Counted from the stretch's first letter, positions 7,133 to 41,393 are shown. The stretch is DNA of 41,695 nt from Candidatus Wunengus sp. YC64 (GCA_052360825.1 DBJWYX010000001.1:1-41695); one strand, 5' to 3'. Notes: generated by a model not told the origin, from the letters alone. A program made the numbers and translations.

Positions 7133-7222
7133 GGCGACTCTATGAGTTTTTTTATATCATGTTTAATGGTTTCTGTGGTATTCATGCTGCTTTTGCCCTT
7201 GATAGAGATAAACCTAATTTAC

Positions 7223-8074
7223 CTATGGGATATATTTCCCGAAAAGGTAATAATTATTTGGTAAATGCCTTATTTCGTAACTATACCACTTGTAATTTTT
7301 TAGAGAATCTTTCCATGCTGAAAAAAAGTTACTATTATCTATTTCTCCAAACTGCTTTTGATATGCGATTAAAAATAAATCAAAATTATCAAGCATACTT
7401 AAGATTGCATATATTGGTGTTTCACTTATTGACCAGGTAGCGATAAAGATTGATTTCTTTTTTGATTCTTTATTATTTAAAATCTCTCTGAGCACTTCAG
7501 TTTTAAAAATACAACTAACTCCATTTGTATATTCATTTGCTCCATACTTTGCGTTTATTCCAATACTCTTTAAATAAAATTCTTGAAGCGCCGAAAAAAC
7601 AGGAAGATCAAAAATGATATATTTGCCTTTAAAACCCAGATTATGAAATAATCTACACATGCTCCCATATCCCCCTCCAAATTCAAGCACATAATCTATA
7701 TCAGTAATATTCAATTTCAATTGATTTCCAAGTTGGGCTAAATGATATGCGTGATGGATCAAATTACTACTACTTTTAGGGTAAAATATACATGGATCAG
7801 GGTGTCCTATCTGGACTTCCTCAGTGGCGCTTTTCCAAATGTGCCAATTACCTTCTATTAAGAACTTTAGTTCATTAACAATGTAAGATGATGTTTTTGG
7901 AACGAACATTGTGTTACGGATGACATTCCATTGAAGAAATCTTCTGGGGTCTGAATTATTAATGTCTTCGACTAACTCAGTAACATTATTAACCCATTCG
8001 GGTTGAATTTCAGAATTATCTGCGTCAGAATATAAAATATTATTTACATGGTTTCTTAAATTATTGATAAGCAA
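7223..8074 (-). CDS. Class I SAM-dependent methyltransferase (putative sugar O-methyltransferase type)
   Basis: Glycine-rich SAM motif VLEFGGGYGSMCRL followed by an acidic residue (IIFDLP). The size and the N-terminal helical region resemble the putative sugar O-methyltransferases found in surface-glycan loci. It overlaps the upstream gene by 19 nt. Confidence 0.6.
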   Translation of the reverse strand: MLINNLRNHVNNILYSDADNSEIQPEWVNNVTELVEDINNSDPRRFLQWNVIRNTMFVPKTSSYIVNELKFLIEGNWHIWKSATEEVQIGHPDPCIFYPKSSSNLIHHAYHLAQLGNQLKLNITDIDYVLEFGGGYGSMCRLFHNLGFKGKYIIFDLPVFSALQEFYLKSIGINAKYGANEYTNGVSCIFKTEVLREILNNKESKKKSIFIATWSISETPIYAILSMLDNFDLFLIAYQKQFGEIDNSNFFSAWKDSLKNYKWYSYEIRHLPNNYYLFGKYIP

Positions 8075-10923
8075 AAGTTTCTCTCTTTTAAATTCGAGTT
8101 ATCCGGACCACTTTCGTTCCAAAGTAAACGTCTCGGTTCAGGCATTTTTGTTGGAACAAAATGTTTCCATCTCTGTATGTATAACTCAATGTCTTGTGTA
8201 CTGTTGTTGAGATTAGATTTCTTCTGATTATCCATAACGTTGTTATGAACAACAAAACACCCAGGCAATGGAATCAGTTGGTTGCATTTCTCATAGAATT
8301 TCAAACACAGATCAGCATCTGCGCAGTAAAATTTATAGTTTTCGTCAAAACCGTTTACCTCCCTAAAGCAATCAAGTCTTACCAGACCATAATTCATCAG
8401 GAGTTTTTGTCCATAGGTAAAATCGATACCAAATCTATCCCAACATGGTTCAGCAATCACATTTTTATAAAAGAAAACCCCACCTGCAACATCCGGGTTT
8501 TGTTTATCCAATAATTCAACAGCTTTAGAAATACATCCTACATTAAAAATAATATCATCGCTTGCATACATTGCCCATTTGCCCAGAGCCTTGGAAAAAC
8601 CAAAATTGTATAATTGTGGCCATGAATGTTTACCTTCACCAAAATATTCTAATTCGTTATAAATCTGGTTTATTCCATGCTTACGAAGGATTTCCAAAGT
8701 GTTATCAGAAGATCCACCCTCAACAACAATTACTTCGTAGATTACACCTTGTGCGGAGGTTTTTAGACTTGTAAGCATTTCATCAAGAAGTTGAGCGCGA
8801 TTTTTTGTTGCAACGACGATACTAACGTCAGTTTTAACAGAAGATTCATTTGCTATGGCAGTGGAGTATGATGTCCGATTACGATTTATGCATGCAATAT
8901 TTTCAAGTGCAATTTCATTTGTACTATCTATATTCAATACCCTTTCCAAAAGGTTTCTGGCTGGAATAAAATTCTTTTCGATAATTTCGATAACGGCAAG
9001 GTTATTTAACGCGTCAACATGTTTATTGTCAATTTCAAGAACCTTCTTTAATATCTCACGTGCTTCTGAATACTGCTTTTGTTCAATTATTTTTTCTGCC
9101 CCTATAACGGATTTGTATAAAATAAGCTTTTTTTCTAATAACTGAATGTTTTTTAGTGCAGTATCATTAGCAGTGTCGTGTTCTAATACTCTTTGTAATA
9201 GTTCTGCTGCCTTTTCCCAGTTCTTTTCAAATATTTCAATCTCTGCAAGATTATTCAGTGCATTCGTGTTGGCTGGCCATTTATTTAAGAGATTATTAAG
9301 GATCTTTCTTGCCTCACTTCTCTTACCTTCTTGAGATTTTAAATTTGCACAAAGATTAAGCAGGTCGGGTGAGTTTAAATATTCATCAATGAATTCAGGT
9401 GCGGCCTGAGTGACTATTTGTAATGCCTCTTTTGTCAAGGCGTAATTACCTAACTTTTCTGCCGATTGGGCAAGATACCAAAATACACGCCAATGATTAC
9501 ATCCGAATTTTGTTGCCGATGCAAGTTCAGTGACTGCTTCCGCATGATTTCCTTTCTGCTGTAAGATCAAGCCTGACCATAGTCTGAGAAAGCCGTCATT
9601 CTGGTAAACATTTTTATAATTAAGAATTCCTCCTGCCCCTTCACCACTGAGTAAAGGATGTGATGAGGCAATGCTCTTTTCGGCTTTGAATAGTTCATGA
9701 ATATTTTGTGAATGCATGCTTGTGGTAAAATCCTGTGCATAATTGCCGAGTGCTTCGATAAACTTATCTGCTCCGGAAATGGACTTTTGATTTTCGTTTA
9801 TGTTATTTATATGAATAACTTGATTCTGTAACATTAAATCTCCATTACTATTCCACTTCCTTTTCTTCTTAGGGAGCCGCATCATCTTTTCATAAACGCA
9901 ATTAAGTTTTTTTGCAGCATTTTCAGCGCCAAAGATTTGTTTTGCATATTCCAGGGCATTTCGTCCTAACCGTGTGCGTTCTTCAGGATGATGAAACAAA
10001 TATTCTATTGCCTCCTTATATTCCGATTCGCTGTGAATTACCAAACCTGTTTCTTCGTGTTTAACAAGTTGTTTTATTCCTCCATAGGGAAATACTACCG
10101 GTGGTATACCTGCATACATAACTTCCTGCAAAGTCAGCTCCGCGGCAGCATAAGTACCTTCACACAAGGGATAACCGTAAATGTCTAATATTTCTATAAC
10201 CGATTTTATACTATTTATATATCCTCGAAAATCAAATCGCTCTTCTACACCAAGATTCATAGCTTGATTTCTTAATTGATCCTGGATACCACCACCACAA
10301 ACGATGAACTTCACATCGGGAACATCGACTGAAGCGCTCATCCGGATGTAATTTTTGTGCATTTTAACGAAATCTACGGTACCGATATAACCAACATTAA
10401 AGTGGTTGTGCGGACGTAATTTTATTCCTTTTAGACGTTCAAAATCGGCAGCGTCATAAACCATCTCTACACAGTGTTGTTTTTTCTCATGAGGTATATC
10501 CCTGAAAATGGGTAATTCATTATAGGTAAATGGATTACAGGGAATATTCATATCTGCAAAGTTAACGAGTTGGGGGGTTATAATTTGTGGGGGGCCATTA
10601 CCTGCGACATGATACCATATCATGAGACGCATTGGAGGTAATTCAGAACGCAACAGTTCATAAATTTCCGGATTATTCCACCAGTTAAAGTGTACGATGT
10701 CTGCCTTTTCTATTTCATTAAAAAGTGTATGCTTGTCAGGGGCACTGAGCATAGACATCCCGGCTTCTTTTGCCAGTTCAATAGCATCAGGCTGTGCCGG
10801 AAGCAAGGAGACGACACTATGTCTGAAATTTCCAAATCGCGATGAGTATTTTGATGTGGCAATCATTGAGCGCGCAGCGCCGCCAAGGCTAAGGCATTGT
10901 ATTATATGTAAAATATTTGACAT
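8056..10923 (-). CDS. 955-aa GT4 (GT-B) - TPR - GT2 (GT-A) fusion glycosyltransferase
   Basis: The N-terminus reads ILHIIQCLSLGGAARSM...EGTYAAAELTLQEVMYAGIPPVV (GT-B EX7E-like region). TPR repeats cover aa 445-680 and include an internal 61-aa duplication. The C-terminal GT2 reads DVSIVVATKNRAQLL...VVEGGSSDNT (aa 698-955). Confidence 0.8.
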   Translation of the reverse strand: MSNILHIIQCLSLGGAARSMIATSKYSSRFGNFRHSVVSLLPAQPDAIELAKEAGMSMLSAPDKHTLFNEIEKADIVHFNWWNNPEIYELLRSELPPMRLMIWYHVAGNGPPQIITPQLVNFADMNIPCNPFTYNELPIFRDIPHEKKQHCVEMVYDAADFERLKGIKLRPHNHFNVGYIGTVDFVKMHKNYIRMSASVDVPDVKFIVCGGGIQDQLRNQAMNLGVEERFDFRGYINSIKSVIEILDIYGYPLCEGTYAAAELTLQEVMYAGIPPVVFPYGGIKQLVKHEETGLVIHSESEYKEAIEYLFHHPEERTRLGRNALEYAKQIFGAENAAKKLNCVYEKMMRLPKKKRKWNSNGDLMLQNQVIHINNINENQKSISGADKFIEALGNYAQDFTTSMHSQNIHELFKAEKSIASSHPLLSGEGAGGILNYKNVYQNDGFLRLWSGLILQQKGNHAEAVTELASATKFGCNHWRVFWYLAQSAEKLGNYALTKEALQIVTQAAPEFIDEYLNSPDLLNLCANLKSQEGKRSEARKILNNLLNKWPANTNALNNLAEIEIFEKNWEKAAELLQRVLEHDTANDTALKNIQLLEKKLILYKSVIGAEKIIEQKQYSEAREILKKVLEIDNKHVDALNNLAVIEIIEKNFIPARNLLERVLNIDSTNEIALENIACINRNRTSYSTAIANESSVKTDVSIVVATKNRAQLLDEMLTSLKTSAQGVIYEVIVVEGGSSDNTLEILRKHGINQIYNELEYFGEGKHSWPQLYNFGFSKALGKWAMYASDDIIFNVGCISKAVELLDKQNPDVAGGVFFYKNVIAEPCWDRFGIDFTYGQKLLMNYGLVRLDCFREVNGFDENYKFYCADADLCLKFYEKCNQLIPLPGCFVVHNNVMDNQKKSNLNNSTQDIELYIQRWKHFVPTKMPEPRRLLWNESGPDNSNLKERNFCLSII

Positions 10924-10964
10924 GTACGTATTCTCGTTAGAGTCCTTATTTAAAATTTTATAAG

Positions 10965-13900
10965 TTATCCTACTTCAGTGCTTATAGGTTTTCGGTAAAC
11001 CCTTATCGTTGAAAAAACACCAGGAATAATTGGCAAATGAGCTTGCGTTTGCGTTGGGTCTGTAGGATAAAGCAATGGAATATGTATTACCTCACAATGA
11101 TAGGTATTTTCCATCAACTCCTGGCATGCTTGACGTATACCAGGTTCTTTCCTCCCGTGATGAAAAAGGATTGCTTCTCTATTGTTATTATCAAGGGGAG
11201 GAAGATAATCGTGAAAAATCATCATCCCGCCAGGGGCTAGGAGTGGAAAATAACAAAGTATATCCTGTTTTACTCCCTCATAGGTATGATCACCGTCAAT
11301 AAAGATCATTTTGGCATAATTACCATTTTTTTTAAATAATTGCTGTAAAGATGGAGCCGCTTGTTGAGATGCTGTAGATAAATGAACTACTTCTCCACCA
11401 ATTACTTTCAAAACATCATTCAGTTGAGCCTGTCCGCCTGGCTCAATTGCAAATCCTTGTAATAACGGTGTAATTTTTTTTAGTGCCATATAAATCAGAA
11501 AGAGTGAAGCTCCTGCGTAGGAACCCACCTCAACAAAACGCAAAGGAGATGATTTGTGGGGTAAATAATTTCTTATAGCATAATATAATTGAAAACGTTC
11601 ATTAATAGACATCTGGCTTACTAATCCCTTCGGGGCAGGATCATCATTATGAAATTCATCAATAATCTTTGACGCCACTACCGTGTTAACAGGAAATTTG
11701 TCAGGCTTTTGAAACCAGACACCAGTTCCATCTATTTTACTGAGATCGAACTTTACATTCCGAATTGTTTCATATTCATGAATAGCTTTTTTACAACCTT
11801 CCCAATATCCATAATCATCTATTTGTATCAGGCCATAATTAACAACACGATCGTATAAATTGTGTAAAATTACTTTTGTTGATTCATACCAATCGCCGTC
11901 CATATGCAAGAACGCAATCATACCGGCAGTATCACGCATTTTGGGTAATGTGTCGCGAAAATCACCCTTGACCGTCTTTAAAATATCTGAAACCCCCAAT
12001 TTTGCACAAATGTTTTTGACGCTATCTTCTGGAGCAGCACAGGTTCCTGCTCCCCACCCAGTTGTATTAGCCGCTTGTCCGTTATGCTGATCGTACTCAG
12101 TAGGAAATGGCATACCATCGAAACAATCGAAGGCATATAACCAGCGAGGTTGTTTGCTGTATTTTTTTATGACATACGCAAGTAATGCTGCGGAGCCTCC
12201 TGCTGCTACACCACATTCAACGAAGTTTCCGGGTATATTTTGTTCACACACCCTCTTTGTTAGAGAAAAGAGCGAGAACAATCGTTCCTCACTTAACATC
12301 GTATAAGGGCGAATAACCTGAAGTAATGTGCTGAATTCATTATCAATACACGGCATAGTGGTTGTGTGAGGGTATTGATGAACAATTTGCGTCAGAAGAT
12401 TATTTGCCTCTGAGTTGTTGGGAAAATAGCGAAGTTCTTCCTGTAATGACTCTCTTGCAGAATGATGTTGGCCCAGTTTTATGAAGCACGCTGCCCTAAG
12501 GTAATCAATTCCCTGGGTTGGTAATTTTAATGATTTTGCTCGATTAAGAAATTCAAACGCAGTTTCAAAATGTCCTGTTTTTATTTCTTTTACAGCGTTT
12601 TGAATGCAGGCGGTGATGTCATTTCTATTTACGGTATCTTTCATTGTATGATGCTGATTACTGACTGAATTTGAAGAAATATATTTGCGTATAATTTTAT
12701 CCAGTTCCTTTGCCCTGTTTTGGATAGAATATTCTTTTAAACAACGTTCCTGTCCTTTCCGTGCAATTTCTTCACGTTTTTCTGGATGAGCAAGATAATA
12801 TAAAATCTTATCAATGAGTTCTTTTTCATCTTTAAAAGTTTCTATTTCTATTCCGGGTTCAAAAAATTGTTTCAGGTTTTCATGATACTCTGTCAAAAGG
12901 AACGTGCCGCTGCCGGTAACTTCAAAGATACGCATATTGGCGGTTTCTTTGTTGGCCAGATCCGTTGTTGTCCGAAGTGCAGAATTTTGTATTTGCAAAA
13001 TACCTCTTGCATCCAGTGCTATTTTACCGGTGTGAAGGGCACGATGCATTGCAATACCAAATTGTCCTTCACGATGGTATTGCGCCACCTCCGGAGGGAT
13101 ACTATCTGTTTGACCACTCAGATAAAAAGCACAGGAAAATTCCTTTCCAGGCTGGGAAGCGGCCCTGGCAACTGTTTGCAGGTATTTGTTACGACGGGGA
13201 TGCTGTGTTAATGTCCATTGACCGGAGAATACAACATCATATTGAGGTGTTACCTCGTTAATGATTTCGTTTATCCATGTTGGAAATCCGGGGAAAAAGT
13301 GTTCTGTTGACCTTGCGCCGAGTTTAAGCGCCATACTTCGTAAAGCAGAAAGATTGGATAGTATCACGTCAAATTCGGACCAATCAGTGCCTTCTGGTAT
13401 GTTTGCAGCACGCCATCCTAAAACCAGCTTTGGTTTCCATGATAACGAATTTATAAAACGGCTATCAAACGTTATGGGATCGGTAAGGTACAAAATGTCC
13501 GGTTTTAACGTGTTGATCTGGTTTCGTGTTATTTCTCGTGTCCAATCATGGGTCTTATCGATTGACATATTATTTTCACGCAACCACTGCTCCTGAGCAT
13601 GTTGATTATTGGCAATAATCAGTTGAGAATCATAGCCAAATTCACCCATATAAGGAGCAACCATATGAATTGCGCTGAAACCGTCATAGACTAAATAATT
13701 AATTTGCTCTTTAAATGAAGTGTGAGCAAGGCCAGGATGTATATTGTATAGATTTACCAGATAATTTTGGTAGAAGGTATGTACCTGTAAAAACTTTAAT
13801 GACGCAGTCTCTGGCTTTTTGAAAAAGTTAGCTGATAATGTTTTACTTTTTAAAGTAGGAAATAAATGGTTTTGTTTGTCGATACGGGTGTCCTCTTTAA

Positions 13901-15176
13901 TTTCTGAGATTACTTTAAATATTTCCTCGTCCTTTGGGAAATGTACTGTGAGTGTATCGCAAACTTTATTTGCTTCGCTTGTGCTTCCAAGTTTTGCTAA
14001 TATCTTAGCAAGGTTTATCCCAGCACATTTATCGTTATTATCGAGTGCATATGCTGTTTCAAACTGCTTTTTTGCCTCCAATAGCTTACCACATCGGTAG
14101 TTTATAACGCCGAGCAAGTTAGATACATCAGAACTCTTTCCATATTGGGTAATCAAAAGATTGCATAACTGTTCAGCCTCATCATGATAATTTGCCTTTA
14201 TAAGTTTTTCTGCAAAAGGTAAAAGAGTATCTATATCTTTATGTGGTTGGTTTACTAAGGCATAAATTTCAGAAAGCAACGCGGCTTTTTTACCATTGCC
14301 TTCTGCGATAGAGGATGTTTCTTCTGAAACACTCGGCTTTATTAATGACTTTTTGTTATGACTTGCAGAAAGCCTTCTCACTTCATATTCAAACTTTTCC
14401 GTCCAGAGGAACATGGTATTTACCAAAGGAGCCTTCAAATAAATCAAAGCGGAGAATGCCTTCTCGCGCTTTGTCTCAGGATTGCAATGCATGTCCATAA
14501 GGACATTACATTGCAATGCCTCAAATTCATCCGGTGTGTATTCTGTAAAAATCAGGCGGTTGTTAACTGCTTCCACCCACCACCTATGGTTAGACGTCTT
14601 TGCACTATTCAGAAATATGTCTTTCACCTTTGCAGGTGTTTCAAGGTATCCTCTCTTGGCAATCCTCATAAGTTCCCTGCAAGCTATTTCGGGATTATGA
14701 ACGTGTTCCAGTACATGAGAACAATAAACAAAATCAAACTCCTTATCCGGAAAAGGCATATCTTCCACATTGCATTCGTAAACCGGCTTGCCATGGATGT
14801 GCTTAAAAGGCTTTCCGGCCCTTCCATAGGTGTTGTTGTTAAAAGTAACATCCGATAAGTGAGTAGCAAGAGGAAATGGAAGATGTCCACTGCCAATATC
14901 CAGCACTTTATCTGTGGGTATAATGCCAAAGTTGTAATGGCGTGCCTGATAAAGATTATAACGATCTTTATGTGGCAAAAGTTGATAACAATCATATAGC
15001 TCCGCTAATACATCAATTGCCTGGACAGGATAGGCGATAAGCAATTGCTCGTAGATATCGATAGCCTCAAGAAAATTACCACTTTGGAATTTCTCTCTGG
15101 CAACTATTACATCCTGTTGTAAGTCACACAAATCTATTTTGAATTTTACACGTTTGCCGTATTTAACAGTATTCAT
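10965..15176 (-). CDS. 1403-aa fusion: class I methyltransferase - TPR - CgeB-like GT-B glycosyltransferase - TPR - TylF-type O-methyltransferase - second class I (Methyltransf_24-like) methyltransferase
   Basis: First methyltransferase: VLDIGSGHLPFP...FDFVYCSHVLEHVHNPE...AKRGYLETP (aa 85-215). Glycosyltransferase tail: MRIFEVTGSGTFLLTEYHENLKQFFEPGIEIETF (aa 460-830). TylF-like domain: NFVECGVAAGGSAALL...LHMDGDWYESTK...IQIDDYGYWEG (aa 945-1158). Third methyltransferase: RFVEVGSYAGASL...IFIDGDHTYEGV...GGMMIFHDY (aa 1190-1390). Confidence 0.8.
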   Translation of the reverse strand: MNTVKYGKRVKFKIDLCDLQQDVIVAREKFQSGNFLEAIDIYEQLLIAYPVQAIDVLAELYDCYQLLPHKDRYNLYQARHYNFGIIPTDKVLDIGSGHLPFPLATHLSDVTFNNNTYGRAGKPFKHIHGKPVYECNVEDMPFPDKEFDFVYCSHVLEHVHNPEIACRELMRIAKRGYLETPAKVKDIFLNSAKTSNHRWWVEAVNNRLIFTEYTPDEFEALQCNVLMDMHCNPETKREKAFSALIYLKAPLVNTMFLWTEKFEYEVRRLSASHNKKSLIKPSVSEETSSIAEGNGKKAALLSEIYALVNQPHKDIDTLLPFAEKLIKANYHDEAEQLCNLLITQYGKSSDVSNLLGVINYRCGKLLEAKKQFETAYALDNNDKCAGINLAKILAKLGSTSEANKVCDTLTVHFPKDEEIFKVISEIKEDTRIDKQNHLFPTLKSKTLSANFFKKPETASLKFLQVHTFYQNYLVNLYNIHPGLAHTSFKEQINYLVYDGFSAIHMVAPYMGEFGYDSQLIIANNQHAQEQWLRENNMSIDKTHDWTREITRNQINTLKPDILYLTDPITFDSRFINSLSWKPKLVLGWRAANIPEGTDWSEFDVILSNLSALRSMALKLGARSTEHFFPGFPTWINEIINEVTPQYDVVFSGQWTLTQHPRRNKYLQTVARAASQPGKEFSCAFYLSGQTDSIPPEVAQYHREGQFGIAMHRALHTGKIALDARGILQIQNSALRTTTDLANKETANMRIFEVTGSGTFLLTEYHENLKQFFEPGIEIETFKDEKELIDKILYYLAHPEKREEIARKGQERCLKEYSIQNRAKELDKIIRKYISSNSVSNQHHTMKDTVNRNDITACIQNAVKEIKTGHFETAFEFLNRAKSLKLPTQGIDYLRAACFIKLGQHHSARESLQEELRYFPNNSEANNLLTQIVHQYPHTTTMPCIDNEFSTLLQVIRPYTMLSEERLFSLFSLTKRVCEQNIPGNFVECGVAAGGSAALLAYVIKKYSKQPRWLYAFDCFDGMPFPTEYDQHNGQAANTTGWGAGTCAAPEDSVKNICAKLGVSDILKTVKGDFRDTLPKMRDTAGMIAFLHMDGDWYESTKVILHNLYDRVVNYGLIQIDDYGYWEGCKKAIHEYETIRNVKFDLSKIDGTGVWFQKPDKFPVNTVVASKIIDEFHNDDPAPKGLVSQMSINERFQLYYAIRNYLPHKSSPLRFVEVGSYAGASLFLIYMALKKITPLLQGFAIEPGGQAQLNDVLKVIGGEVVHLSTASQQAAPSLQQLFKKNGNYAKMIFIDGDHTYEGVKQDILCYFPLLAPGGMMIFHDYLPPLDNNNREAILFHHGRKEPGIRQACQELMENTYHCEVIHIPLLYPTDPTQTQAHLPIIPGVFSTIRVYRKPISTEVG

Positions 15177-15197: not shown

Positions 15198-18100
15198 TTA
15201 GCCCAGATACCTCAGTTTGTCATTGGTAAACATGCGTTGTAGCAAGGAGTCCGCAAAGAATTTGACACCCCAGTCAGGTATTTTATAAGCGCAATAACCA
15301 CCGCCAATCGGGTAAGACCCCGGCAATCCGCCATAAACGTTTTTATCAGAAACACCATCCAGTAGATGTAATTGTTTTATATCATCTAAAAGAAAATCTG
15401 CAACAGGTACTAGCTGAGGGTTATTGGTATATCCCGCTAGTTTTCGCAAAAAATACTCAATCTGTGCATTTCCTGTTACGCACGACCAATGGTCATTACT
15501 ATGCCAATTACAGTCAAAAGTGCCTGGAAGAGTTACATAATTACTACCTTTGTCCATCGCTTTTGCCTTCATATAGAAATCAGCGATGCCTTTGGCGGCA
15601 TTTTGTAAAACGGTTAGCACTTTCCGACGATCAAAATGAGCATTGTCAAGTAAGTAAATTTCCATAAGGCCCACCAATACATAACCAATAAGATGAGTCC
15701 ACGGTTTGTTAGGATCTGATAAGCTGTTGTTTGAAAACCATCCATTTGAGTTTGCCTGTGACAGTGTCCAATCAATTGCGCGTTCTGCAATCTCGCGGTA
15801 TTTTTCATTGCCGTTTATTGTATATAATTCGAGTAAAGCCCATGCAACTCTGCTTTTATAGGCTTTAGGCCCATTGTAAGTGTTTCTTGTCCACATTCCA
15901 TTAGCGTCTTGGATATCGGCAATCCAATCGGCAGCACGATTGGCAGCCTCAAGATATTTCCCTTTTCCTGTTTCTTTGTAAAGCGCTATCCAGCCAATAA
16001 TAACCTGGCTGGTATTAAAAACTCTGGGCCTCTGTCCATAAACGCCAACCGGTTCACCTGCACCACCTTCCGGTGATTGAATCTCTACTTCCCAATCACC
16101 CATCTCAATCGCCCACGTAAGATATAATTCTATTCCTGAGAGCCTGTAGTAACATAAAAAAGTAGGGATTATATAACCGGTAGTTTCCGGATAATCAACA
16201 TCCCACTTTCTTGAATCTAAATGGTACATTGCGGATACTCCGCCACCACAGTTAACATCCTGTGCAACTCTTAACCATTTGATACATGCATCAAGATGGT
16301 CTCTGTCAGGCAAAATAGGGTTTTTCCTTGTGTTATATCTGTCCAGCTCATGCCTTATCCTCGACATTTCGTTTGTGTCACGTTTTATGTTTTTTAACTT
16401 ATTATGAGTTTCAGTCAATAGTTTTTTGATTTCTAAATCGTCAGGAATACAGTTCAAATATGTAGTATAAAGGGTTGTCAAATCCTCATAACGATCTAAT
16501 GAATGTAATATCTTTCCGCACTTAACAACGGTTATACGATCGTCTGGCGTTAACTCGAGCACTTTTAATAAATATTGCCAGGCCTTTTCAGTTTTTCCTG
16601 CTTCCCAAAAGTTAAATCCAAGATTCCGAAAAATATCAATATCATTCCGTGGTCTTCCTGTAGGATTTCGCTGAATCGAAGATTTTATTATTTGTAATGT
16701 CTTGTTGACATCATTATTGAAATCATGCACAATATTCCCATTTTTAATCGCTTCCAAAAAGAACATCTGCTCAGGTCTGTTATCAATCTTGTCAATTTCA
16801 GGCATTCTGCTTTCACCATATTTCTTTTCCTCTACAAGAGAAAAACCAGCCTCCTCAAAAAGGACTTTGAGGCTTTCAAAGTCATAAACGTATTTACAGT
16901 GTTTTCCACCAGCCTGGAAACCATAAAAGAATTCGTTAAATTTGTCTGCGATTGTCTTGCCCGGAAAACGCTCACGCCCATCTTTCAGTTTCTGGAAATA
17001 AAATTCGCAGTCATTGTTCAGATATTTTTCTGAAAGAATGCGTAAGTCCTGCGTACCAAAACGAGCAATACCGCCTTGCTTTAATACACGAAAAACATCT
17101 TTAATAATTTCAATCGCACGCTGTCTTGAAAAATAATTAATTGCGGACATACAAACGACGGCAACCACGCTTTCATCAGGAAAAGGCAACAGCTCCCTTT
17201 CGAGATCCAATACCATATCCGCATTTGGGGAAACATCTATGTTAATAAATCCATCCAACTTAATGGGGCCGCAGCATAAATTTATTTTTGCCTCAGTTTT
17301 TGCAGTTTTTGTCTTGATATCTTTTGCCGGAATGCGTTGTTGCTTGCTATGGGTATGTCTTTGTTCGAGAAAGTATGACAAACAATTATTCAGACAAAAT
17401 TCCGGCGCATTACCTGTTAAAATATTCCATCGGAACTTTCTATATTCAGGATTATTCCAAATATCGAGAACATCCATTTCAAAAATATTTCCGAAACAGG
17501 TGGCTTTGTTGAAATCATGGCAGCATATTATCACTGAACCATCAAGTAAAATGGTAAAAACATTTTGAGGATTTGGGCATTCACGTATGGCTAATCTGAG
17601 CGATCCTATGTCATTGTAATATTTACGTTGTAATTCAGGATGATCAGAATAGGAAAATTGTGCTTCATTTGTGCGAATATATGGCGCTTTAAAGGTCGCA
17701 TGAAGTCCTAATGATTTACAATATTTCCGGAATGACTCCATTTCATGTTGATTATGTTTGAATACAACGAACTGAGGGTATATGTGAACCTTGTTGCCGT
17801 GTTTCATGTTAAAATGGTGTAAAATTTCTAAAGACGACATGGCCTTTTTAACATTACCGCCTTTCCGGTATTTCTCGTAAACTTCCTGGGTAACTCCATC
17901 TATTGAAACAATAATATCTGCAACGCCGGACGTTATTAATTCCTCAGTCTTTTCCGGGGTAAGGGAGATGCCATTGGTGCTGATATTCGTTTTGCAAAAT
18001 TCTGAAGCATATTGTGTCATAGAAATAATATCTTTATTCAGCATGGGCTCACCCCATAAATGAAGATAAAGATATTTGGCATGAGGACGGATTCTATCCG

Positions 18101-18272
18101 CAATAATTTTGAAGTGTTCAAAGCTCATAAACCCTTTTTTGCGTAGTACCGAGTCCCCACCAAGAGCACACTCCGGGCATTTCAGATCACATGCAAGCGC
18201 AGTTTCAATACTAAAGGTCTCTGGCAGCATTTTGTTAAATTCTTCCGTGGTTATTGATTGTTTATTTATCAT
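15198..18272 (-). CDS. 1024-aa fusion: radical SAM with SPASM/twitch-like Cys cluster - class I methyltransferase - TPR-like linker - (alpha/alpha) toroid domain (terpene-cyclase/prenyltransferase/LanC/AGE-like fold)
   Basis: CX3CX2C at C28/C32/C35 (ALACDLKCPEC). Cys-rich region ECPNP...IICCHD...ATCFG...EFCLNNC at aa 231-297. Methyltransferase signature INLCCGPIKLDGFINID...VLKQGGIARF at aa 328-510. The C-terminal region (aa 655-1015) has repeated aromatic/Gly hairpin motifs: YPETTGYIIPTF, QVIIGWIALYKETG, SRVAWALLELY, WTHLIGYVLVGL. Confidence 0.8.
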   Translation of the reverse strand: MINKQSITTEEFNKMLPETFSIETALACDLKCPECALGGDSVLRKKGFMSFEHFKIIADRIRPHAKYLYLHLWGEPMLNKDIISMTQYASEFCKTNISTNGISLTPEKTEELITSGVADIIVSIDGVTQEVYEKYRKGGNVKKAMSSLEILHHFNMKHGNKVHIYPQFVVFKHNQHEMESFRKYCKSLGLHATFKAPYIRTNEAQFSYSDHPELQRKYYNDIGSLRLAIRECPNPQNVFTILLDGSVIICCHDFNKATCFGNIFEMDVLDIWNNPEYRKFRWNILTGNAPEFCLNNCLSYFLEQRHTHSKQQRIPAKDIKTKTAKTEAKINLCCGPIKLDGFINIDVSPNADMVLDLERELLPFPDESVVAVVCMSAINYFSRQRAIEIIKDVFRVLKQGGIARFGTQDLRILSEKYLNNDCEFYFQKLKDGRERFPGKTIADKFNEFFYGFQAGGKHCKYVYDFESLKVLFEEAGFSLVEEKKYGESRMPEIDKIDNRPEQMFFLEAIKNGNIVHDFNNDVNKTLQIIKSSIQRNPTGRPRNDIDIFRNLGFNFWEAGKTEKAWQYLLKVLELTPDDRITVVKCGKILHSLDRYEDLTTLYTTYLNCIPDDLEIKKLLTETHNKLKNIKRDTNEMSRIRHELDRYNTRKNPILPDRDHLDACIKWLRVAQDVNCGGGVSAMYHLDSRKWDVDYPETTGYIIPTFLCYYRLSGIELYLTWAIEMGDWEVEIQSPEGGAGEPVGVYGQRPRVFNTSQVIIGWIALYKETGKGKYLEAANRAADWIADIQDANGMWTRNTYNGPKAYKSRVAWALLELYTINGNEKYREIAERAIDWTLSQANSNGWFSNNSLSDPNKPWTHLIGYVLVGLMEIYLLDNAHFDRRKVLTVLQNAAKGIADFYMKAKAMDKGSNYVTLPGTFDCNWHSNDHWSCVTGNAQIEYFLRKLAGYTNNPQLVPVADFLLDDIKQLHLLDGVSDKNVYGGLPGSYPIGGGYCAYKIPDWGVKFFADSLLQRMFTNDKLRYLG

Positions 18273-18289: not shown

Positions 18290-19834
18290 TTAAAGTGACT
18301 GTTTATTTGTCAAGCCTTGGCTAGTATTTATTGCCTTCAGCGTATCGATGGACTCCTTATGGGTTGGGTCTATGGCAAGTTCATTTAAAAGAGCCTTTTC
18401 CGCTAAATCATAATTCCCATTTTTCAGAAAACAGAGTGCACGAGCGTAATGAAGACCCGCAATCCGTAATCCAATACTATTAGATAATGATAGTGTATTG
18501 TTAAAAGCTTTTAGGGCGGATGAATACTCTTGTGATTCATAAAATCTTGATCCTGTATTAAGCAAATAGTGAATAGCCTCTTTGCCCTGTAACTTTACCG
18601 CTTCTGTAAGGTATGGGTCAGATGCAGATATTTGTTGAGGTGTATCGTCCTTTAAGCTTAGTAAGAATTCAGCTATATCTTTTGATGGTAAATATGGCGT
18701 TCTTCTCGACAGATGTTCTTTTTGAATATTAAATGCACCGGACAATATCTCCTCAATATCAGTGACCATTTCAAATTGTAGGGGAGAGGTCAATTGTTCA
18801 TTTACTAAACCTGGTAAATCCCTTATGTCGATTGTTCTGTTGGTAGGCCACTGCAAATCATCTAGCATGATGCCACCTGATTTTACTAAAACTGTTGGTA
18901 CTTTTAATAAAAACGCCTCTGCTGCCGTTGTAGAACCATAGTGGAAAAAGATGCCGCATTTCTGCATAACACTTGCAATGCTTACCGGGTCTGACAAATA
19001 GACAATGTTGGGATAATTTTCAAATTCTCTATAGCGATCAGTTCCTTTTCGAGCGTTAACAATATTTTCCGTCGGGTGGCTTTTAATAATAAATAAAATA
19101 TCTGAGTTATTTTTCGCAGTTTCAACAATAGTTTTTATCCATAGATCCCTCAATTGCGCAGTTTGTTCAGATAAGAGTATTTTTTGTGCCAGTTCATACT
19201 CAAATTCATTCTTATTATTAACATCAAACAAGTCTCCCGCCCTGATTAAATCTTCCCGTGTATAATCAGCTAGTGCGAAACCTGTTACAAAAAATAAAAT
19301 ATGTTCTCTGGGGTAATGTTGTATTCTGTTTCTCAATTTCTGAGGGATATCCAGCGTATTTAAACGGTTGTTTTCAAAATAACATTCGTAATTTGGATAA
19401 CCAAATGCTTTTACCCGTTCTTTCGAAGAAATTATGCTATGTCTTACCAGGCCTTTAGCGAGTAAATCTGCGGCTTTTTTACCCCATACTAATTCGTAGT
19501 CAACAATATTATTCCCATACCGGTCCAATCCTATAAGACTTTTAAGATGTTTTTCTGAATTAAAATTTAAAATTCCTTCAGTCCTGAAACAGATGATATG
19601 GCAATTTAGTAAATATTTGATGATATAAAACGGAGTTGAGACAGGATATGCGCTAAATGGGAAGGTAAAAATGATATTTGGAGAGAATTCTAAAATTTTT
19701 GATAAAAATTGATTCTCGTGGAAATCTAGTATTTTTGTGGTTGTTTCAAGTTTTTCCTGTACCATCCATTTTATAATTTTATTCATTATTTCGAGTTCAC
19801 GCTCAGGTTTATTCAGTACAAATAAAACTCTCAT
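18290..19834 (-). CDS. 514-aa protein of uncertain function, GT-B-like / surface-carbohydrate-biosynthesis type, with C-terminal TPR
   Basis: Two Rossmann-like halves (MRVLFVLNKP...; ILFIIKSHPTEN...FFHYGSTTAAEAFLLKVPTVLV) resemble capsule-synthesis or glycerophosphotransferase-like transferases. The C-terminal TPR reads YSSALKAFNNTL...GNYDLAEKALLNELAIDP. The assignment is by eye only. Confidence 0.45.
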   Translation of the reverse strand: MRVLFVLNKPERELEIMNKIIKWMVQEKLETTTKILDFHENQFLSKILEFSPNIIFTFPFSAYPVSTPFYIIKYLLNCHIICFRTEGILNFNSEKHLKSLIGLDRYGNNIVDYELVWGKKAADLLAKGLVRHSIISSKERVKAFGYPNYECYFENNRLNTLDIPQKLRNRIQHYPREHILFFVTGFALADYTREDLIRAGDLFDVNNKNEFEYELAQKILLSEQTAQLRDLWIKTIVETAKNNSDILFIIKSHPTENIVNARKGTDRYREFENYPNIVYLSDPVSIASVMQKCGIFFHYGSTTAAEAFLLKVPTVLVKSGGIMLDDLQWPTNRTIDIRDLPGLVNEQLTSPLQFEMVTDIEEILSGAFNIQKEHLSRRTPYLPSKDIAEFLLSLKDDTPQQISASDPYLTEAVKLQGKEAIHYLLNTGSRFYESQEYSSALKAFNNTLSLSNSIGLRIAGLHYARALCFLKNGNYDLAEKALLNELAIDPTHKESIDTLKAINTSQGLTNKQSL

Positions 19835-19912: not shown

Positions 19913-20911
19913 CTATTTGTTTCCATTTTTCCGTGCAGAAATCCACATATGTGAAGATAATCCATTATCCGATAACCATTTTTGGAAAGAATCCATGTAG
20001 ACATCTCCTTCATCAATTAATATGCGCTTTAAAAATGGTTGATTATCAAGTGATACAGCACCTTCTGTTACCTTGTTTTTTACCAATTCAGCGTCTAATT
20101 TTCCCGGAGTTTCAATTTCTAAAATTTCAAAACCAATCCTTTCCAATAGGAGAGAAATTGATTTTGGATGAAAATAGTTCAAATGATCAGGCGCGGTGGT
20201 ATTATCAGACTTGTCTTTCAATACCAACAAATCGAACCCCTTGATATTTGGCGTTGCAATAAATAAGAGGCCTCCCTCATTTAATGTTTCATAGATACCA
20301 TTCACATATTTCTTTGGATCAAACACATGTTCTATTGATTCAATGCTTGTTATGACATCTGCTTTCTTTACGTTTATGTTTTCAATAAAATCCTCAATAA
20401 CATGTAAACCTCTTTCACGGCAAGATTGGGCAGGACTTGGATTAGGTTCAACCGCAACAACCTCTTTAAATATTCCTGTTATTTTTACCTGTTCGCAAAA
20501 AGTTCCACACCCTGCACCAATATCCATAAATGATTCTGTATGAATCTTATATTTTTCACAGAGTTCAGTAATTTTCTTTATTCTTGGTGATATTAAATAT
20601 TTTACTCTTGCGTCCTCTGACCGTGGATAGACATTTTCGTTCCAAAATTTTTCAGCCAAGGATATTTTATAATGTTGAAATATCATTTCTTGAGTTGGGC
20701 GTGGACTTACAAAAACGGTTTCACATAGGGAACACCTCACAAAGGTAAAACCGTCCCTCATGTAAAATAGTTCTTTTTTATCTTTGTTGCAGGCAGGGCA
20801 GGTGACCTCCACAAAGTGGCTTTTGTTCGATAAAATATTTTCCTGATCTATTTTGTAAAGCTTTCTCCCTTCAGAACGTAAGTCATCTGCTCTAATCTCA
20901 GTTTCTCTCAT
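19913..20911 (-). CDS. Class I SAM-dependent methyltransferase with N-terminal zinc-ribbon
   Basis: CPACN...CSLCETVF four-Cys ribbon at aa 38-64, followed by the SAM motif FMDIGAGCGTF and VITSIESIEHVFDP...GGLLFIATPN. Confidence 0.75.
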   Translation of the reverse strand: MRETEIRADDLRSEGRKLYKIDQENILSNKSHFVEVTCPACNKDKKELFYMRDGFTFVRCSLCETVFVSPRPTQEMIFQHYKISLAEKFWNENVYPRSEDARVKYLISPRIKKITELCEKYKIHTESFMDIGAGCGTFCEQVKITGIFKEVVAVEPNPSPAQSCRERGLHVIEDFIENINVKKADVITSIESIEHVFDPKKYVNGIYETLNEGGLLFIATPNIKGFDLLVLKDKSDNTTAPDHLNYFHPKSISLLLERIGFEILEIETPGKLDAELVKNKVTEGAVSLDNQPFLKRILIDEGDVYMDSFQKWLSDNGLSSHMWISARKNGNK

Positions 20912-20970
20912 GTAATACCTCCCGAAGAGAAAATAAAAAAGTAAAAAGTGAAATAGAGATACATGATTAT

Positions 20971-22074
20971 TTATTCAATGGGATTTTCCATCTCCCATTC
21001 TCCAATGTGATTCCTCTTCCACATGGGACCTCTAAATATTTCTGCAACATTCCAGAATTCATCCAGTGTAATATTGATATAATCACAGAATTTTTGAATA
21101 AACTTGATTCCACACTTGCCATCGTACTGTCTTACAAGTCTTACCCCTTCTTCTCTTGTTATTCTGCCTGCCCAAATATCAGCACATGCTTCATCGGTCG
21201 CAAAACCATAACCGAGTTTCATATGTTTTAACATTTGGTTTACAATACCGGTATCATCATCAAGGGCATGATAATTCGTATAACGTCCCAGTTCGTGTGG
21301 TTCTTCATTTCTTACTTTCAAGCCACGTGCAATCGAAAACATGGCGTGGGCATGAGGCGACCATCTTTTATAGTAACCAAGGTAGACCATCTTGATACCG
21401 GCCTCTTGTATTTCTTCTTGTGAGGGATATTGATAAGGCAGCAAGTCATTTAGTATTAAGTCTTCACAAAGCAGATGCGATGCGTTTCCTGACCAGCCAA
21501 GGGTGTTCTGTTTATTGATGTTGAATGCGTCTCCGGCGTTTTTATCTTTACTGTCATCGTCTAAGGTAGTAGTTTCAATATCAAAAATGACTAACGGCAC
21601 TTTATAAAAAAGAGCGGCTCTTACGGGTGTCGCATAGAGGGCATATTCTGAAGGCTTTACAGGATTTCCCCATTTATAAAATGCCATTTTTGCCAGTTTT
21701 CTGCATACCTTTGGATTCGATCTGAACATAAAACAATCAAAACCCATTTCCTGTAAATTATTTAAATTATGCCTTCCTATTTCTGTTATCTTATCAGGTG
21801 CCATATTCGCCAGTAAAACCCTCAATCCTAATTCATCTCTGGCAAAAAGCGCCATATAGGTGCTATCCTTTCCGCCACTAACGCCGACTACACAATCATA
21901 TTGGGCGTTTTTTCTCCTGGCATCCTCAGCTATTTTCAGAAGTTGTTTTTTCCTCGCATCCCAATCAACCTTATCAAGCGACCTATAATATCTGCAAAAA
22001 TTGCAAACACCCTTTTCATCAAAATTAATTCCCGCCCTTGTATCTGGTAAAACACAATTCTTACAGTATTTCAT
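20971..22074 (-). CDS. N-acetyl sugar amidotransferase (PP-loop ATP pyrophosphatase, PseA/WbpG/WbuX type)
   Basis: N-terminal CKNCVLPDT...CNFCRYY zinc ribbon, followed by the PP-loop VVGVSGGKDSTYMA. Length and layout are typical of the acetamidino-forming amidotransferases found in nonulosonic acid and O-antigen loci. Confidence 0.85.
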   Translation of the reverse strand: MKYCKNCVLPDTRAGINFDEKGVCNFCRYYRSLDKVDWDARKKQLLKIAEDARRKNAQYDCVVGVSGGKDSTYMALFARDELGLRVLLANMAPDKITEIGRHNLNNLQEMGFDCFMFRSNPKVCRKLAKMAFYKWGNPVKPSEYALYATPVRAALFYKVPLVIFDIETTTLDDDSKDKNAGDAFNINKQNTLGWSGNASHLLCEDLILNDLLPYQYPSQEEIQEAGIKMVYLGYYKRWSPHAHAMFSIARGLKVRNEEPHELGRYTNYHALDDDTGIVNQMLKHMKLGYGFATDEACADIWAGRITREEGVRLVRQYDGKCGIKFIQKFCDYINITLDEFWNVAEIFRGPMWKRNHIGEWEMENPIE

Positions 22075-22142
22075 TATTGGTTCCTTTTATTTTGCATTCA
22101 ACCTATAGGGATTAAGTTAATTATGTGAAAAAGATTACGGTC

Positions 22143-22964
22143 CTATTTTTTCACTATTACCACACAAAGAACTCCATTTTCCTTATATTCATTACCTGGG
22201 ATATGTTCTGGAAAATTGACAGATACAGACACCTCTTGCCAGCCCAAAGAACTATCATGTTTGTAAATATATTCATATATTGTGGTGCCTGCAGGCATAC
22301 TTGATTTAATTTGATTCCATTTGTTTTCATTGTATTCTAAATGCATTGCATAACGCCCCTTGGAATCTTTTGTCGAAAAAACACCACCGCTTCCAAAAGG
22401 GACAGTAAGGATAAGTTTCCCCCCAGGACGAAGAATACGCATCATTTCTCGTACGGCCTTTTCATCTTCTTTACAATCATAAAGTGCTGGGAAAGAACCA
22501 TAATCAAGTGTAGGACGATCAAATACCGTATGAGGTGATTCAAGATACTTATCAAAACCTAAATGTTCTAATACAGATACACATAATACAACATCAAAGG
22601 TGTCAGTTTTGTAAGAACAAAACCTGATATCCTGGCAAGAAAAGCGGATAGAGTTTATTAAGTTTTGATCAAATTTTACAAAACGATTATGTACACGGTT
22701 AAAAGGAACAATATCACAAGCGTAGAGTTCTCTCTTTTGCTCAATAAGTGACAGTAAACCATAAAAATACGATGGATCAGCAAGGGAGGTTCCTATATCA
22801 ACAATTTTTCTTTCTTTTCCGATTGATGAAAATACAAAAGGAATTTCCACACACCGCTCTGATTCACCAGGAAAATATGGTTTATTACGGGAAATCCGAA
22901 AGGGTTCGCGGCTTTCTAAATAACGTTGTATATTTCCATATTTATTAGTGTGCATATGACCCAC
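22143..22964 (-). CDS. Class I SAM-dependent methyltransferase
   Basis: KIVDIGTS... motif I, then FDVVLCVSVLEHLGFD and ILRPGGKLILTVPFG (Methyltransf_11-like). It overlaps the upstream gene by 20 nt. Confidence 0.7.
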   Translation of the reverse strand: MGHMHTNKYGNIQRYLESREPFRISRNKPYFPGESERCVEIPFVFSSIGKERKIVDIGTSLADPSYFYGLLSLIEQKRELYACDIVPFNRVHNRFVKFDQNLINSIRFSCQDIRFCSYKTDTFDVVLCVSVLEHLGFDKYLESPHTVFDRPTLDYGSFPALYDCKEDEKAVREMMRILRPGGKLILTVPFGSGGVFSTKDSKGRYAMHLEYNENKWNQIKSSMPAGTTIYEYIYKHDSSLGWQEVSVSVNFPEHIPGNEYKENGVLCVVIVKK

Positions 22965-24588: not shown

Positions 24589-24611
24589 ATCATTTATTAG
24601 TCGTTATACTC

Positions 24612-37494: not shown

Positions 37495-37523
37495 GGTACT
37501 TTACCTTTCTGAAAGTTGATCAA

Positions 37524-41379: not shown

Positions 41380-41393
41380 ACTTTCTATTCTCC

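Follow-up and report, generated by a model that had tools for sequence, protein, structure and literature searches.

Which chemistry might be carried out by a protein that joins a radical S-adenosylmethionine (SAM) enzyme, a methyltransferase and a helical barrel in one chain is the question raised by a stretch of DNA from Candidatus Wunengus sp. YC64 (GCA_052360825.1 DBJWYX010000001.1:1-41695), which was analysed at its full length of 41,695 nucleotides and is referred to as the window in the following. A first-pass annotation, made from the sequence alone, had singled out the gene at positions 15,198 to 18,272 (here called the target) as an unusual fusion of four parts, i.e., a radical SAM/SPASM-like domain, a SAM-dependent methyltransferase, a linker resembling tetratricopeptide repeats (TPR) and an (alpha/alpha) toroid domain. 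The present analysis favours the target being a sugar-tailoring enzyme of a flagellin glycan pathway, a reading to which a probability of roughly 0.6 is given. The strongest clue to this function is absent from the first-pass annotation and comes from the genomic surroundings, the window being a flagellin glycosylation island with its genes on one strand.

The target belongs to a long minus-strand operon, in which it is separated by 17 nt from the stop of the upstream gene and by 21 nt from the start of the downstream gene. Its four parts, i.e., radical SAM plus Twitch domain, class I methyltransferase, TPR-like arm and (alpha/alpha)6 barrel, are laid out as follows:

15198..18272, minus strand: target open reading frame (ORF), 1024 amino acids (aa) plus stop, with ATG start and no internal stop
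17361..18272, minus strand: radical SAM domain and Twitch auxiliary domain, aa 1-304, matching Pfam Radical_SAM and SPASM over the cutoffs
18168..18191, minus strand: CX3CX2C motif (C28, C32, C35), aa 28-35, judged by the motif to be the site of the SAM-cleaving [4Fe-4S] cluster
17376..17618, minus strand: Twitch sub-domain, aa 219-299, with invariant C232, C250, C251, C293 and C297
16734..17297, minus strand: class I SAM-dependent methyltransferase, aa 326-513, from Pfam (Methyltransf_11), model and Foldseek
16329..16649, minus strand: TPR-like arm of six helices in three hairpins, aa 542-648, rigidly continuous with the barrel in the model
15201..16307, minus strand: (alpha/alpha)6 six-hairpin barrel of an unnamed family, aa 656-1024, from twelve helices in the model and Foldseek

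This four-part architecture is real according to Pfam, AlphaFold2 and Foldseek, and the nucleotide range 15201-16310 given earlier for aa 655-1024 is correct. An AlphaFold2 model built from 88 aligned homologues reached a mean predicted local distance difference test score (pLDDT) of 91.7 and a predicted TM-score (pTM) of 0.57. Its domain boundaries place the radical SAM and auxiliary domains at aa 1-304, a Rossmann methyltransferase at aa 326-513, six helices at aa 542-648 and twelve helices at aa 656-1014, with low confidence only at the linkers aa 305-325 and 514-541. Because of the pTM of 0.57 and the disordered inter-domain linkers, the whole-protein model predicts beads on a string and no fixed domain arrangement. 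A signal peptide is absent from the protein. As the first-pass annotation had stated, no characterised enzyme of such architecture is on record: neither the PDB nor the searchable literature contains one.

The N-terminal module belongs to the radical SAM superfamily by motif, Pfam and fold match to BtrN, BlsE and MoaA. Pfam Radical_SAM matches aa 25-163 with 49 bits (cutoff 29.5) and Pfam SPASM matches aa 232-297 with 51 bits (cutoff 21.5). When cysteine conservation was scored over 55 radical-SAM-bearing homologues, the core residues C28, C32 and C35 as well as the auxiliary residues C232, C250, C251, C293 and C297 proved invariant (55/55 each), while C259 is not conserved. A full SPASM motif contains seven cysteines, arranged as CX9-15GX4C, gap, CX2CX5CX3C, gap, C, and holds two auxiliary clusters. 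Of this motif the target retains only C232-X12-G-X4-C250 and C293-X3-C297, and a full SPASM domain was rejected in favour of Twitch because the CX2CX5 section and the final cysteine are missing. Judged from its sequence, the auxiliary domain is a single-cluster Twitch of the BtrN type, since C232, C250, C293 and C297 align with the four cysteines of the corresponding BtrN segment, the ligands of BtrN's single auxiliary cluster. A Twitch is a shortened SPASM domain in which one cysteine pair at a beta-hairpin and another at the C-terminus bind a single [4Fe-4S] cluster. Pfam SPASM still matches the target because this model covers Twitch domains too, and NCBIfam N_Twi_rSAM matches aa 232-314. 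Hence, of the earlier description as radical SAM/SPASM-like, the CX3CX2C core and the auxiliary cysteine cluster stand, whereas the auxiliary domain is a Twitch and not a seven-cysteine SPASM. The best PDB matches of this part in Foldseek are BtrN, BlsE, SuiB, SkfB, MoaA, EpeE, PqqE, viperin and DesII; by sequence, PDB matches were obtained to BtrN (1.3e-12, strongest at aa 219-299), BlsE (6e-7) and SkfB (4e-5). BtrN is thus the top PDB match by sequence and also by fold (Foldseek E 5e-10).

The second module is a class I SAM-dependent methyltransferase, a part of the first-pass annotation confirmed by Pfam (Methyltransf_11, 26 bits, cutoff 21.2), by a separate model of aa 320-650 (pLDDT 88) with a Rossmann-type order of strands and helices, and by Foldseek, which returned class I small-molecule methyltransferases only, none specific enough to point to the acceptor. 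Nearly invariant residues of this module are N331, L332, C333, G335, D346, D356 and the DNRPEQ stretch at 497-502, together with a conserved LKQGG motif of the LKPGG type at about aa 397-401; the SAM-binding motifs are thus conserved. The following TPR-like arm was modelled with a pLDDT of 80 in its first helical block, rising to 98, and of 93-98 where it runs into the barrel. Since confidence stays level across this junction, the arm is best regarded as the N-terminal part of the barrel module and not as a free linker. The hairpins are spaced about 34-37 residues apart in the model. A Pfam scan of the target gave no significant TPR match; TPR_19 does score over its cutoff in homologue P0022, at the corresponding aa 918-981. 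The arm is missing from stand-alone barrels.

The C-terminal domain is, as modelled, an (alpha/alpha)6 six-hairpin barrel, its twelve helices (aa 656-1014) being joined by long and short loops in alternation. Foldseek neighbours are unsaturated glucuronyl hydrolases of glycoside hydrolase (GH) families GH88/GH105, cellobiose 2-epimerases of the N-acylglucosamine 2-epimerase (AGE) type, a polysaccharide lyase (PL) and GH76, at 11-15% identity and, for GH88 and AGE structures, with TM-scores of 0.64-0.71 when normalised to the target; the likeness to GH88/GH105 and AGE is predicted to be one of fold only. The toroid fold suggested in the first-pass annotation is thereby borne out, and the possibility that the C-terminus comprises merely further TPR repeats was rejected, as the model shows a closed 12-helix barrel. 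By sequence, Pfam yields a cluster of weak toroid-family matches at aa 745-930 (GH127, Pec_lyase, SQHop_cyclase_C, GH88, GH9, LANC_like, GH76 and C5-epim_C), and sequence profiles against solved structures give repeat-level similarity only. No family-specific Pfam or NCBIfam model matches the barrel over its full length.

Conservation in the barrel was scored over 83 closer sequences and 119 distant relatives. Among the His/Cys motifs proposed earlier to bind a metal, H860 (PWTH) and C931 (HWSC) are conserved in 82/83 closer sequences, whereas H928 is not conserved and C994 (GGYC) occurs in 46/83 only, its neighbour Y993 being kept in 82/83. In the distant relatives, E696, Y700, H860, Y864, C931, Q937, Y993, W1001, K1004 and D1008 are conserved in 117-119/119, and all of these except W1001 are candidate pocket residues. 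H659 is kept in 83/119, leaving H860 as the only histidine invariant across the family; conservation of E740 and R750 is limited to the flagellar subfamily. In the model, the conserved motifs open the even-numbered helices (2, 4, 6, 8, 10 and 12), each after a long loop:

aa 694-700: YPETTGY, barrel motif at an even-helix start
aa 739-756: GEPxG...PRVFNTxQ, barrel motif at an even-helix start
aa 808-811: RVAW, barrel motif at an even-helix start
aa 856-864: KPWTHLIGY, barrel motif at an even-helix start
aa 929-937: WSCxTGNAQ, barrel motif at an even-helix start
aa 998-1008: IPNWGVKFFAD, barrel motif at an even-helix start

In six-hairpin enzymes, the long-loop face is the usual active-site face. 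Because the barrel has a single invariant cysteine (C931), a zinc site of the LanC or GH127 type is excluded, while a His/Cys/carboxylate metal site or a catalytic cysteine would be compatible with this residue pattern.

A profile search with the barrel against 1.84 billion representative proteins (clusters at 50% identity) retrieved 3962 relatives, 882 of them at E<=1e-30, most of which are stand-alone proteins of 380-420 aa. By these sequence matches, the barrel represents a large family that is without a name and is found in glycan clusters. Neither Pfam nor NCBIfam holds a dedicated model for it, and the database names of its members conflict, ranging from 'hypothetical' over 'prenyltransferase beta subunit', 'terpene cyclase/mutase' and 'GH127' to 'YyaL'. 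Stand-alone barrels of haloarchaea (32-33% identity) share glycan clusters with WecB, NDP-sugar dehydrogenase, GT4, sulfatase-like and methyltransferase genes, and some distant relatives are fused to GT4 glycosyltransferases (GT) or to a formyltransferase. Stand-alone barrels repeatedly adjoin or fuse to a Formyl_trans_N formyltransferase (loci L014 and L020; proteins P0240 and P0302), which makes it a second recurrent partner besides methyltransferases. AprG, a weak sequence match to the barrel, was dropped after the literature gave nothing usable.

How the parts of the target are connected elsewhere was followed by a search of 5.8 billion proteins, which yielded 165 homologues; the best 120 of these (E-values 0 to 1e-115) were mapped segment by segment onto the target, and the homology signal is well above chance. 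Radical SAM domain, methyltransferase and barrel occur together in 56 of the best 120, at 40-87% identity, with named sources including Desulfonema magnum, Desulfuromonadaceae and Ignavibacteria. Another 36 are proteins of about 660-720 aa with methyltransferase and barrel alone (Heliobacterium undosum, Desulfobaculum xiamenense, Pararhodospirillum oryzae, Pseudodesulfovibrio and Anaeromyxobacter, among others), two combine radical SAM domain and barrel without the methyltransferase, and 26 carry the radical SAM domain without the barrel, mostly joined to other methyltransferase or glycosyltransferase modules (2/26 retain the methyltransferase). A radical SAM gene of its own, with 51-55% identity to aa 14-303 of the target, lies at most two genes from the methyltransferase-barrel gene in Heliobacterium, Desulfobaculum and Pararhodospirillum, while in Pseudodesulfovibrio a separate 288-aa radical SAM/SPASM gene is located directly upstream of it. 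On this sequence comparison, the split and fused versions appear to be orthologous fission/fusion states, and the target fusion can therefore be read as a 'Rosetta stone' for a functional link between its parts. The target is thus not the unusual one-off suggested by the first-pass annotation: at least 56 homologues share its domain set, and its architecture is a recurring state in a network of fusion and fission with neighbouring genes. In six homologues (P0012, P0018, P0022, P0024, P0025 and P0028), the N-terminal 400-510 aa or so have no Pfam match and are unrelated to the 514-aa ORF upstream of the target; this extension is another, uncharacterised module of the same system.

The same survey bears on whether the long ORF might be an assembly or annotation artefact joining separate genes. 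In some genomes the radical SAM part and the methyltransferase-barrel part are indeed encoded by two genes, which would fit such an explanation. The frame of the target, however, is open throughout, and the 56 fused homologues come from independent assemblies, isolate genomes among them (e.g., an 8-Mb Desulfonema magnum contig), with conserved linker positions. Furthermore, an 85-86%-identical copy of the target is found in identical gene order on another contig. With at least 56 proteins carrying the fusion, the mis-assembly considered in the first-pass annotation did not materialise, and the chance of an artefact is practically negligible.

The genomic context was examined in loci with 10-kb flanks. 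A scan of genome contigs gave 7 loci, and co-occurrence was assessed over about 13 loci with the radical SAM module and/or the methyltransferase-barrel unit plus about 6 loci with stand-alone barrels. In every informative locus, a trio recurs which consists of the radical SAM module, the methyltransferase-barrel unit and a protein combining a methyltransferase with GT1_2 (and TylF). Wherever downstream sequence was available (11/11 loci), GT1_2(-TylF) follows the target homologue, either directly or after one short methyltransferase gene (L009). Genes for NeuB or CMP-sugar synthetase flank the module in L001, L010, L011 and L018, and in Heliobacterium undosum FliD, FliS and two Maf flagellin glycosyltransferases stand beside the split module. 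In the window itself, the two immediate neighbours of the target are:

10965..15176, minus strand: downstream ORF of 1403 aa with methyltransferase, TPR, Glyco_trans_1_2, TPR, TylF O-methyltransferase and Methyltransf_24 (Pfam), the conserved partner
18290..19834, minus strand: upstream ORF of 514 aa with a GT-like domain and C-terminal TPR

Both are drawn into fusions elsewhere. Across many anaerobes, the modules of the target and these two neighbours are found joined or side by side in changing combinations. Parts of the downstream giant are joined to the radical SAM module in P0106, P0120, P0119, P0107 and P0035. The upstream ORF aligns along its entire length, at 34-48% identity, with the first 510 aa or so of P0010, P0004, P0005, P0119 and P0111, which means that it is fused to radical SAM-methyltransferase-barrel proteins in P0004, P0005 and P0010 and to radical SAM proteins without the barrel in P0111 and P0119. 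Its best NCBIfam match is the BFO_1060 family glycosyltransferase (106 bits, under the 200-bit cutoff); a match to surf_polysacc was also obtained. Members of the BFO_1060 family in Tannerella forsythia are genetically required for the addition of pseudaminic/legionaminic acid (Pse/Leg) derivatives to protein O-glycans (PMC5420450). For the target's family, the searchable literature contains no paper that ties radical SAM enzymes to the glycosylation of flagellin or to that with nonulosonic acids, or TylF to flagellin.

From these data, a route may be sketched in which the radical SAM module would abstract a hydrogen atom from a sugar carbon, followed by oxidation or rearrangement, with BtrN-type dehydrogenation to a keto sugar as the closest precedent. 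The barrel would bind the same sugar and perform an acid/base step, which could be an epimerisation next to the new carbonyl, a hydration or an elimination, whereupon the methyltransferase would cap the product. By analogy, an acidic sugar is the most likely substrate, i.e., a nonulosonic or uronic acid, which might be either already attached to flagellin or present as an activated precursor. Such a sugar is favoured because the best fold neighbours of the barrel act on uronic acids, because genes for NDP-sugar dehydrogenase or NeuB-type synthase recur in the contexts, and because some genomes encode the enzyme as a fusion with the candidate nonulosonic-acid transferase. The TPR-like arm could dock flagellin or a partner enzyme, after the example of the FlmG TPR domain. 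Put more generally, the barrel would found a large family of six-hairpin enzymes whose pocket of invariant Glu, Tyr, His, Tyr, Cys, Gln, Tyr, Lys and Asp performs a sugar-tailoring reaction without prior description. In anaerobes, this barrel would have been combined with a BtrN-like dehydrogenase and a methyltransferase in a single protein for the new, oxygen-independent modification of flagellin nonulosonic or uronic acids by radical oxidation, epimerisation or rearrangement, and methylation. This broader proposal is tentative and stands at less than even odds, and the specific sequence of dehydrogenation, epimerisation and methylation, drawn from analogy, is to be considered doubtful.

Several observations weigh against the target acting as a sugar-tailoring enzyme on a flagellin glycan. 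For no family member has a substrate, a product or an activity been described, and the proposed chemistry is inferred by analogy with relatives of only about 15-20% identity. NCBIfam radical SAM matches all remain far under their cutoffs, so that the radical SAM module belongs to no named family, and the barrel matches catalytically unrelated hydrolases, lyase and epimerases about equally. The pTM of 0.57 together with the disordered linkers means that physical cooperation of the domains gets no support from the model. Flagellar genes were found in only 2 of about 13 loci (with flanks limited to 10 kb), and NDP-sugar dehydrogenase in only about half of the contexts. Moreover, radical SAM homologues accompanied by methyltransferase-GT1_2 occur without a barrel within 10 kb (L004 and L005), and barrel relatives occur in aerobic haloarchaea without a radical SAM partner; hence, neither the radical SAM module nor the barrel strictly requires the other. 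For every methyltransferase-barrel gene examined, on the other hand, a radical SAM module is fused or nearby. As the radical SAM module occurs without the barrel in L004 and L005, but the methyltransferase-barrel unit always with a radical SAM module, the radical SAM module and methyltransferase-GT1_2 look like the core of the system and the methyltransferase-barrel unit like an add-on.

The fold of the barrel invites other explanations of function, the most obvious of which is a GH127-, GH88- or PL-like hydrolase or lyase that trims or edits a glycan or cleaves a nucleotide sugar instead of serving the radical step as an epimerase or isomerase, the fusion then reflecting co-regulation only. 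The GH127 catalytic domain is in fact the best Pfam match of the barrel (33.3 bits, cutoff 24.9), NCBI names some relatives GH127, the best Foldseek matches are GH88/GH105 and polysaccharide lyase, and the invariant E696 and D1008 together with His and Tyr would suit a glycosidase or a His/Tyr lyase. However, the GH127 match covers 95 of 376 profile positions (118-212) and falls short of the catalytic region, and one invariant cysteine leaves no room for a Cys-rich zinc site; GH127 membership was rejected on these two grounds. Identity to GH88 amounts to 11-15%, and the protein lacks a signal peptide, is fused to cytoplasmic Fe-S/SAM enzymes and is encoded in a biosynthetic operon, which makes this explanation unlikely. 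A barrel of the terpene cyclase or prenyltransferase type, acting on an isoprenoid or lipid carrier, could be suspected from weak SQHop_cyclase_C and Prenyltrans matches, from a barrel profile match to squalene-hopene cyclase (4e-6, over one hairpin pair) and from RefSeq and IMG annotations of relatives as 'prenyltransferase/squalene oxidase repeat-containing protein'. This similarity, however, is confined to the generic hairpin repeat, whereas such enzymes are marked by a DxDD motif or an Asp-Cys-His zinc site and by QW repeats. Terpene cyclases and prenyltransferases, as well as LanC, are not among the top 50 Foldseek matches of the barrel, no conserved DxDD is present in the sequence or the consensus, no isoprenoid pathway genes are conserved beside family members, no isoprenoid ligand was seen, and the context is entirely one of sugar metabolism. 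Membership in the terpene cyclases was rejected for the missing DxDD, the hairpin-level similarity and the sugar context, and an isoprenoid function is accordingly very improbable.

A different substrate class would be involved if the target were a peptide or protein maturase, in which radical SAM domain, LanC-like barrel and methyltransferase modify amino-acid side chains in flagellin or a small peptide by epimerisation, thioether or cross-link formation and methylation, in the manner of enzymes for peptides that are made on ribosomes and modified after translation (RiPPs). SuiB, SkfB, EpeE, PqqE and StsB are among the structural and NCBIfam matches, the barrel and its relatives show weak LANC_like and LanM matches, and the TPR-like arm could bind a protein substrate. 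Yet RiPP maturases usually carry a two-cluster SPASM domain in contrast to the one-cluster, BtrN-like Twitch of the target, and the radical SAM core begins at about aa 20 already, with no domain for leader-peptide recognition ahead of it. The zinc site of LanC consists of two cysteines and one histidine, a set that is excluded by the one invariant barrel cysteine; LanC membership was rejected, since no second conserved cysteine accompanies C931 and H860, and LANC_like scores 18.7 bits against a cutoff of 23.2. In addition, barrel relatives are fused to GT4 or formyltransferases and located in polysaccharide clusters, and no conserved precursor-peptide gene is known beside the target, though no search for one was made. 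Peptide maturation is thus rather improbable, and sugar tailoring in a flagellin glycan pathway remains the preferred reading of the target.

The remainder of the window, read along the operon, is made up as follows:

operon order 1: FlgN-like ORF, FlgK, FlgL-like protein, FliW, CsrA, then TPR protein
operon order 2: second radical SAM/SPASM enzyme, NeuB-type synthase, GT2, cytidylyltransferase, class III aminotransferase, NDP-sugar dehydrogenase, GT2
operon order 3: three B12-radical SAM paralogues, methyltransferase, WbuX amidotransferase, methyltransferase, 514-aa GT-like/TPR ORF, target
operon order 4: 1403-aa protein with methyltransferase, TPR, GT1_2, TPR, TylF and MT24, three further TPR-glycosyltransferase giants, partial GDP-mannose dehydratase-like ORF

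At the flagellar end, a FliW-CsrA pair (37216-37994, minus strand) lies downstream of FlgK and the FlgL-like protein (38291-41651, minus strand), with the small FlgN-like ORF at the right window edge; a flagellin gene proper is not present in the window. Within the otherwise tightly packed operon, a 934-bp gap (35161-36093) contains no ORF of at least 100 aa on the operon strand and has 65% A+T. It shows no Rfam match, in agreement with the lack of any Rfam match over the whole window, and no terminator-like site, its promoter-like sites not exceeding chance expectation; the gap may be an internal regulatory or promoter region. It is followed by a stand-alone radical SAM/SPASM protein of 334 aa (34156-35160, minus strand), directly upstream of the NeuB-type synthase, whose best NCBIfam match is a sub-cutoff one to spiro-SPASM and which shares about 21-30% identity with the radical SAM module of the target. 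Three B12-binding radical SAM paralogues lie in tandem at 22945-27766 (minus strand); these proteins of 547, 547 and 471 aa have their best matches, all sub-cutoff, in P- and C-methyltransferases, BchE and HpnJ. The island hence encodes five radical SAM enzymes (the target, the ORF at 34156-35160 and the three B12-binding ones), which suggests extensive radical chemistry on the glycan.

Between the B12-binding paralogues and the upstream neighbour of the target, a WbuX-type N-acetyl sugar amidotransferase (328 bits, over the cutoff) has a class I methyltransferase on either side (19913-22964, minus strand). This arrangement presumably resembles the Campylobacter genes for acetamidino and N-methylacetimidoyl nonulosonic acids. 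Downstream of the target, 816-15176 (minus strand) is taken up by a run of giant multi-domain proteins (918, 1187, 955 and 1403 aa), in each of which two or three glycosyltransferase or methyltransferase domains are combined with TPR blocks. A 283-aa ORF at 7223-8074, part of P0108 by fusion in another organism, weakly matches a NanM-type sugar O-methyltransferase. At the left edge, a partial ORF (1-570, minus strand) runs off the window; its N-terminus, by eye, is GDP-mannose 4,6-dehydratase-like, and genes for deoxyhexose synthesis probably continue past this edge.

All components of the target come from known superfamilies, and flagellin glycosylation islands typically contain tailoring enzymes with several domains, so that no new kind of system is at hand. 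Members of the target's architecture, of the barrel family and of the target's Twitch subfamily are, however, all uncharacterised. Flagellin glycans affect filament assembly, motility, and host and phage recognition, and their chemistry in anaerobes is almost unexplored. Here, three catalytic modules, taken to act on one molecule, are joined in one protein, and a defined gene set of candidate nonulosonic-acid transferase, Twitch radical SAM module, methyltransferase-barrel unit and methyltransferase-GT1_2-TylF protein would together make a new sugar modification. If true, this would add a protein-glycan example to the few radical SAM enzymes known to act on carbohydrates and provide a first functional handle on thousands of six-hairpin proteins now labelled as hypothetical, prenyltransferase, terpene cyclase or GH127. 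The target is a well-defined and experimentally tractable lead rather than a surprise.

Among enzymes of established function, BtrN (PDB 4m7t) comes closest to the radical SAM module. BtrN is the 2-deoxy-scyllo-inosamine dehydrogenase of the butirosin pathway and oxidises a ring CH-OH of an aminocyclitol by radical SAM chemistry. Both proteins have a CX3CX2C core followed by a short auxiliary domain, the TM-score normalised to the target reaches 0.67-0.75, and the substrate of BtrN is a sugar-like ring. In contrast, identity in the Foldseek alignments is about 17-18%, the last cysteine pair is CX3C in the target and CX2C in BtrN, C251 is an extra invariant residue of the target, and only the target carries a methyltransferase and a barrel in the same chain, in a context of flagellin glycosylation as opposed to aminoglycoside synthesis. 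The likeness to BtrN-type dehydrogenases is thus one of fold and motif, and no equivalog model exists for them. BlsE, which acts on the glucuronic-acid moiety of a sugar nucleoside, and DesII, which acts on a nucleotide sugar, are likewise among the top structural matches, BlsE also by sequence; moreover, the glucuronic-acid substrate of BlsE has its counterpart in the NDP-sugar dehydrogenase of the target operon, an enzyme making uronic acids. Their matches are weaker than those of BtrN, however, and with 31 bits the target stays far short of the cutoff of 400 set for BlsE in NCBIfam.

For the barrel, GH88/GH105 and AGE enzymes share the 12-helix architecture, and the conserved polar residues of the target lie on the long-loop face. 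The GH88 site is an Asp/Asp pair and the AGE site a multi-histidine set (paired catalytic His, a third His and Arg). Compared with these sets by residue type, the invariant Cys, His, three Tyr, Lys, Glu and Asp of the target have no obvious match in either. With the GH127 beta-L-arabinofuranosidases, whose site comprises Glu, a Cys3 zinc centre and a Cys nucleophile, the target shares a score over the cutoff and a common hairpin sequence pattern, whereas the alignment is limited to positions 118-212 of 376 and the single invariant cysteine excludes the Cys-rich zinc/nucleophile site.

On the side of the glycan, the T. forsythia nonulosonic-acid transferases Tanf_01245 and TFUB4_00887 represent the best NCBIfam family of the upstream 514-aa ORF, BFO_1060, with the difference that the match of this ORF is below the cutoff (106 versus 200 bits). 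The organisation of the system as a whole finds its parallel in FlmG of Caulobacter, a flagellin glycosyltransferase built from TPR and GT-B parts whose TPR domain binds flagellin (PMC7591256). The target differs in having no glycosyltransferase and a short TPR-like arm of three hairpins, for which docking to flagellin is suggested by analogy only. What both have in common is the modular combination of TPR and catalytic part at a flagellin glycosylation locus (PMC7591256), and TPR-enzyme fusions of this kind dominate the window of the target.

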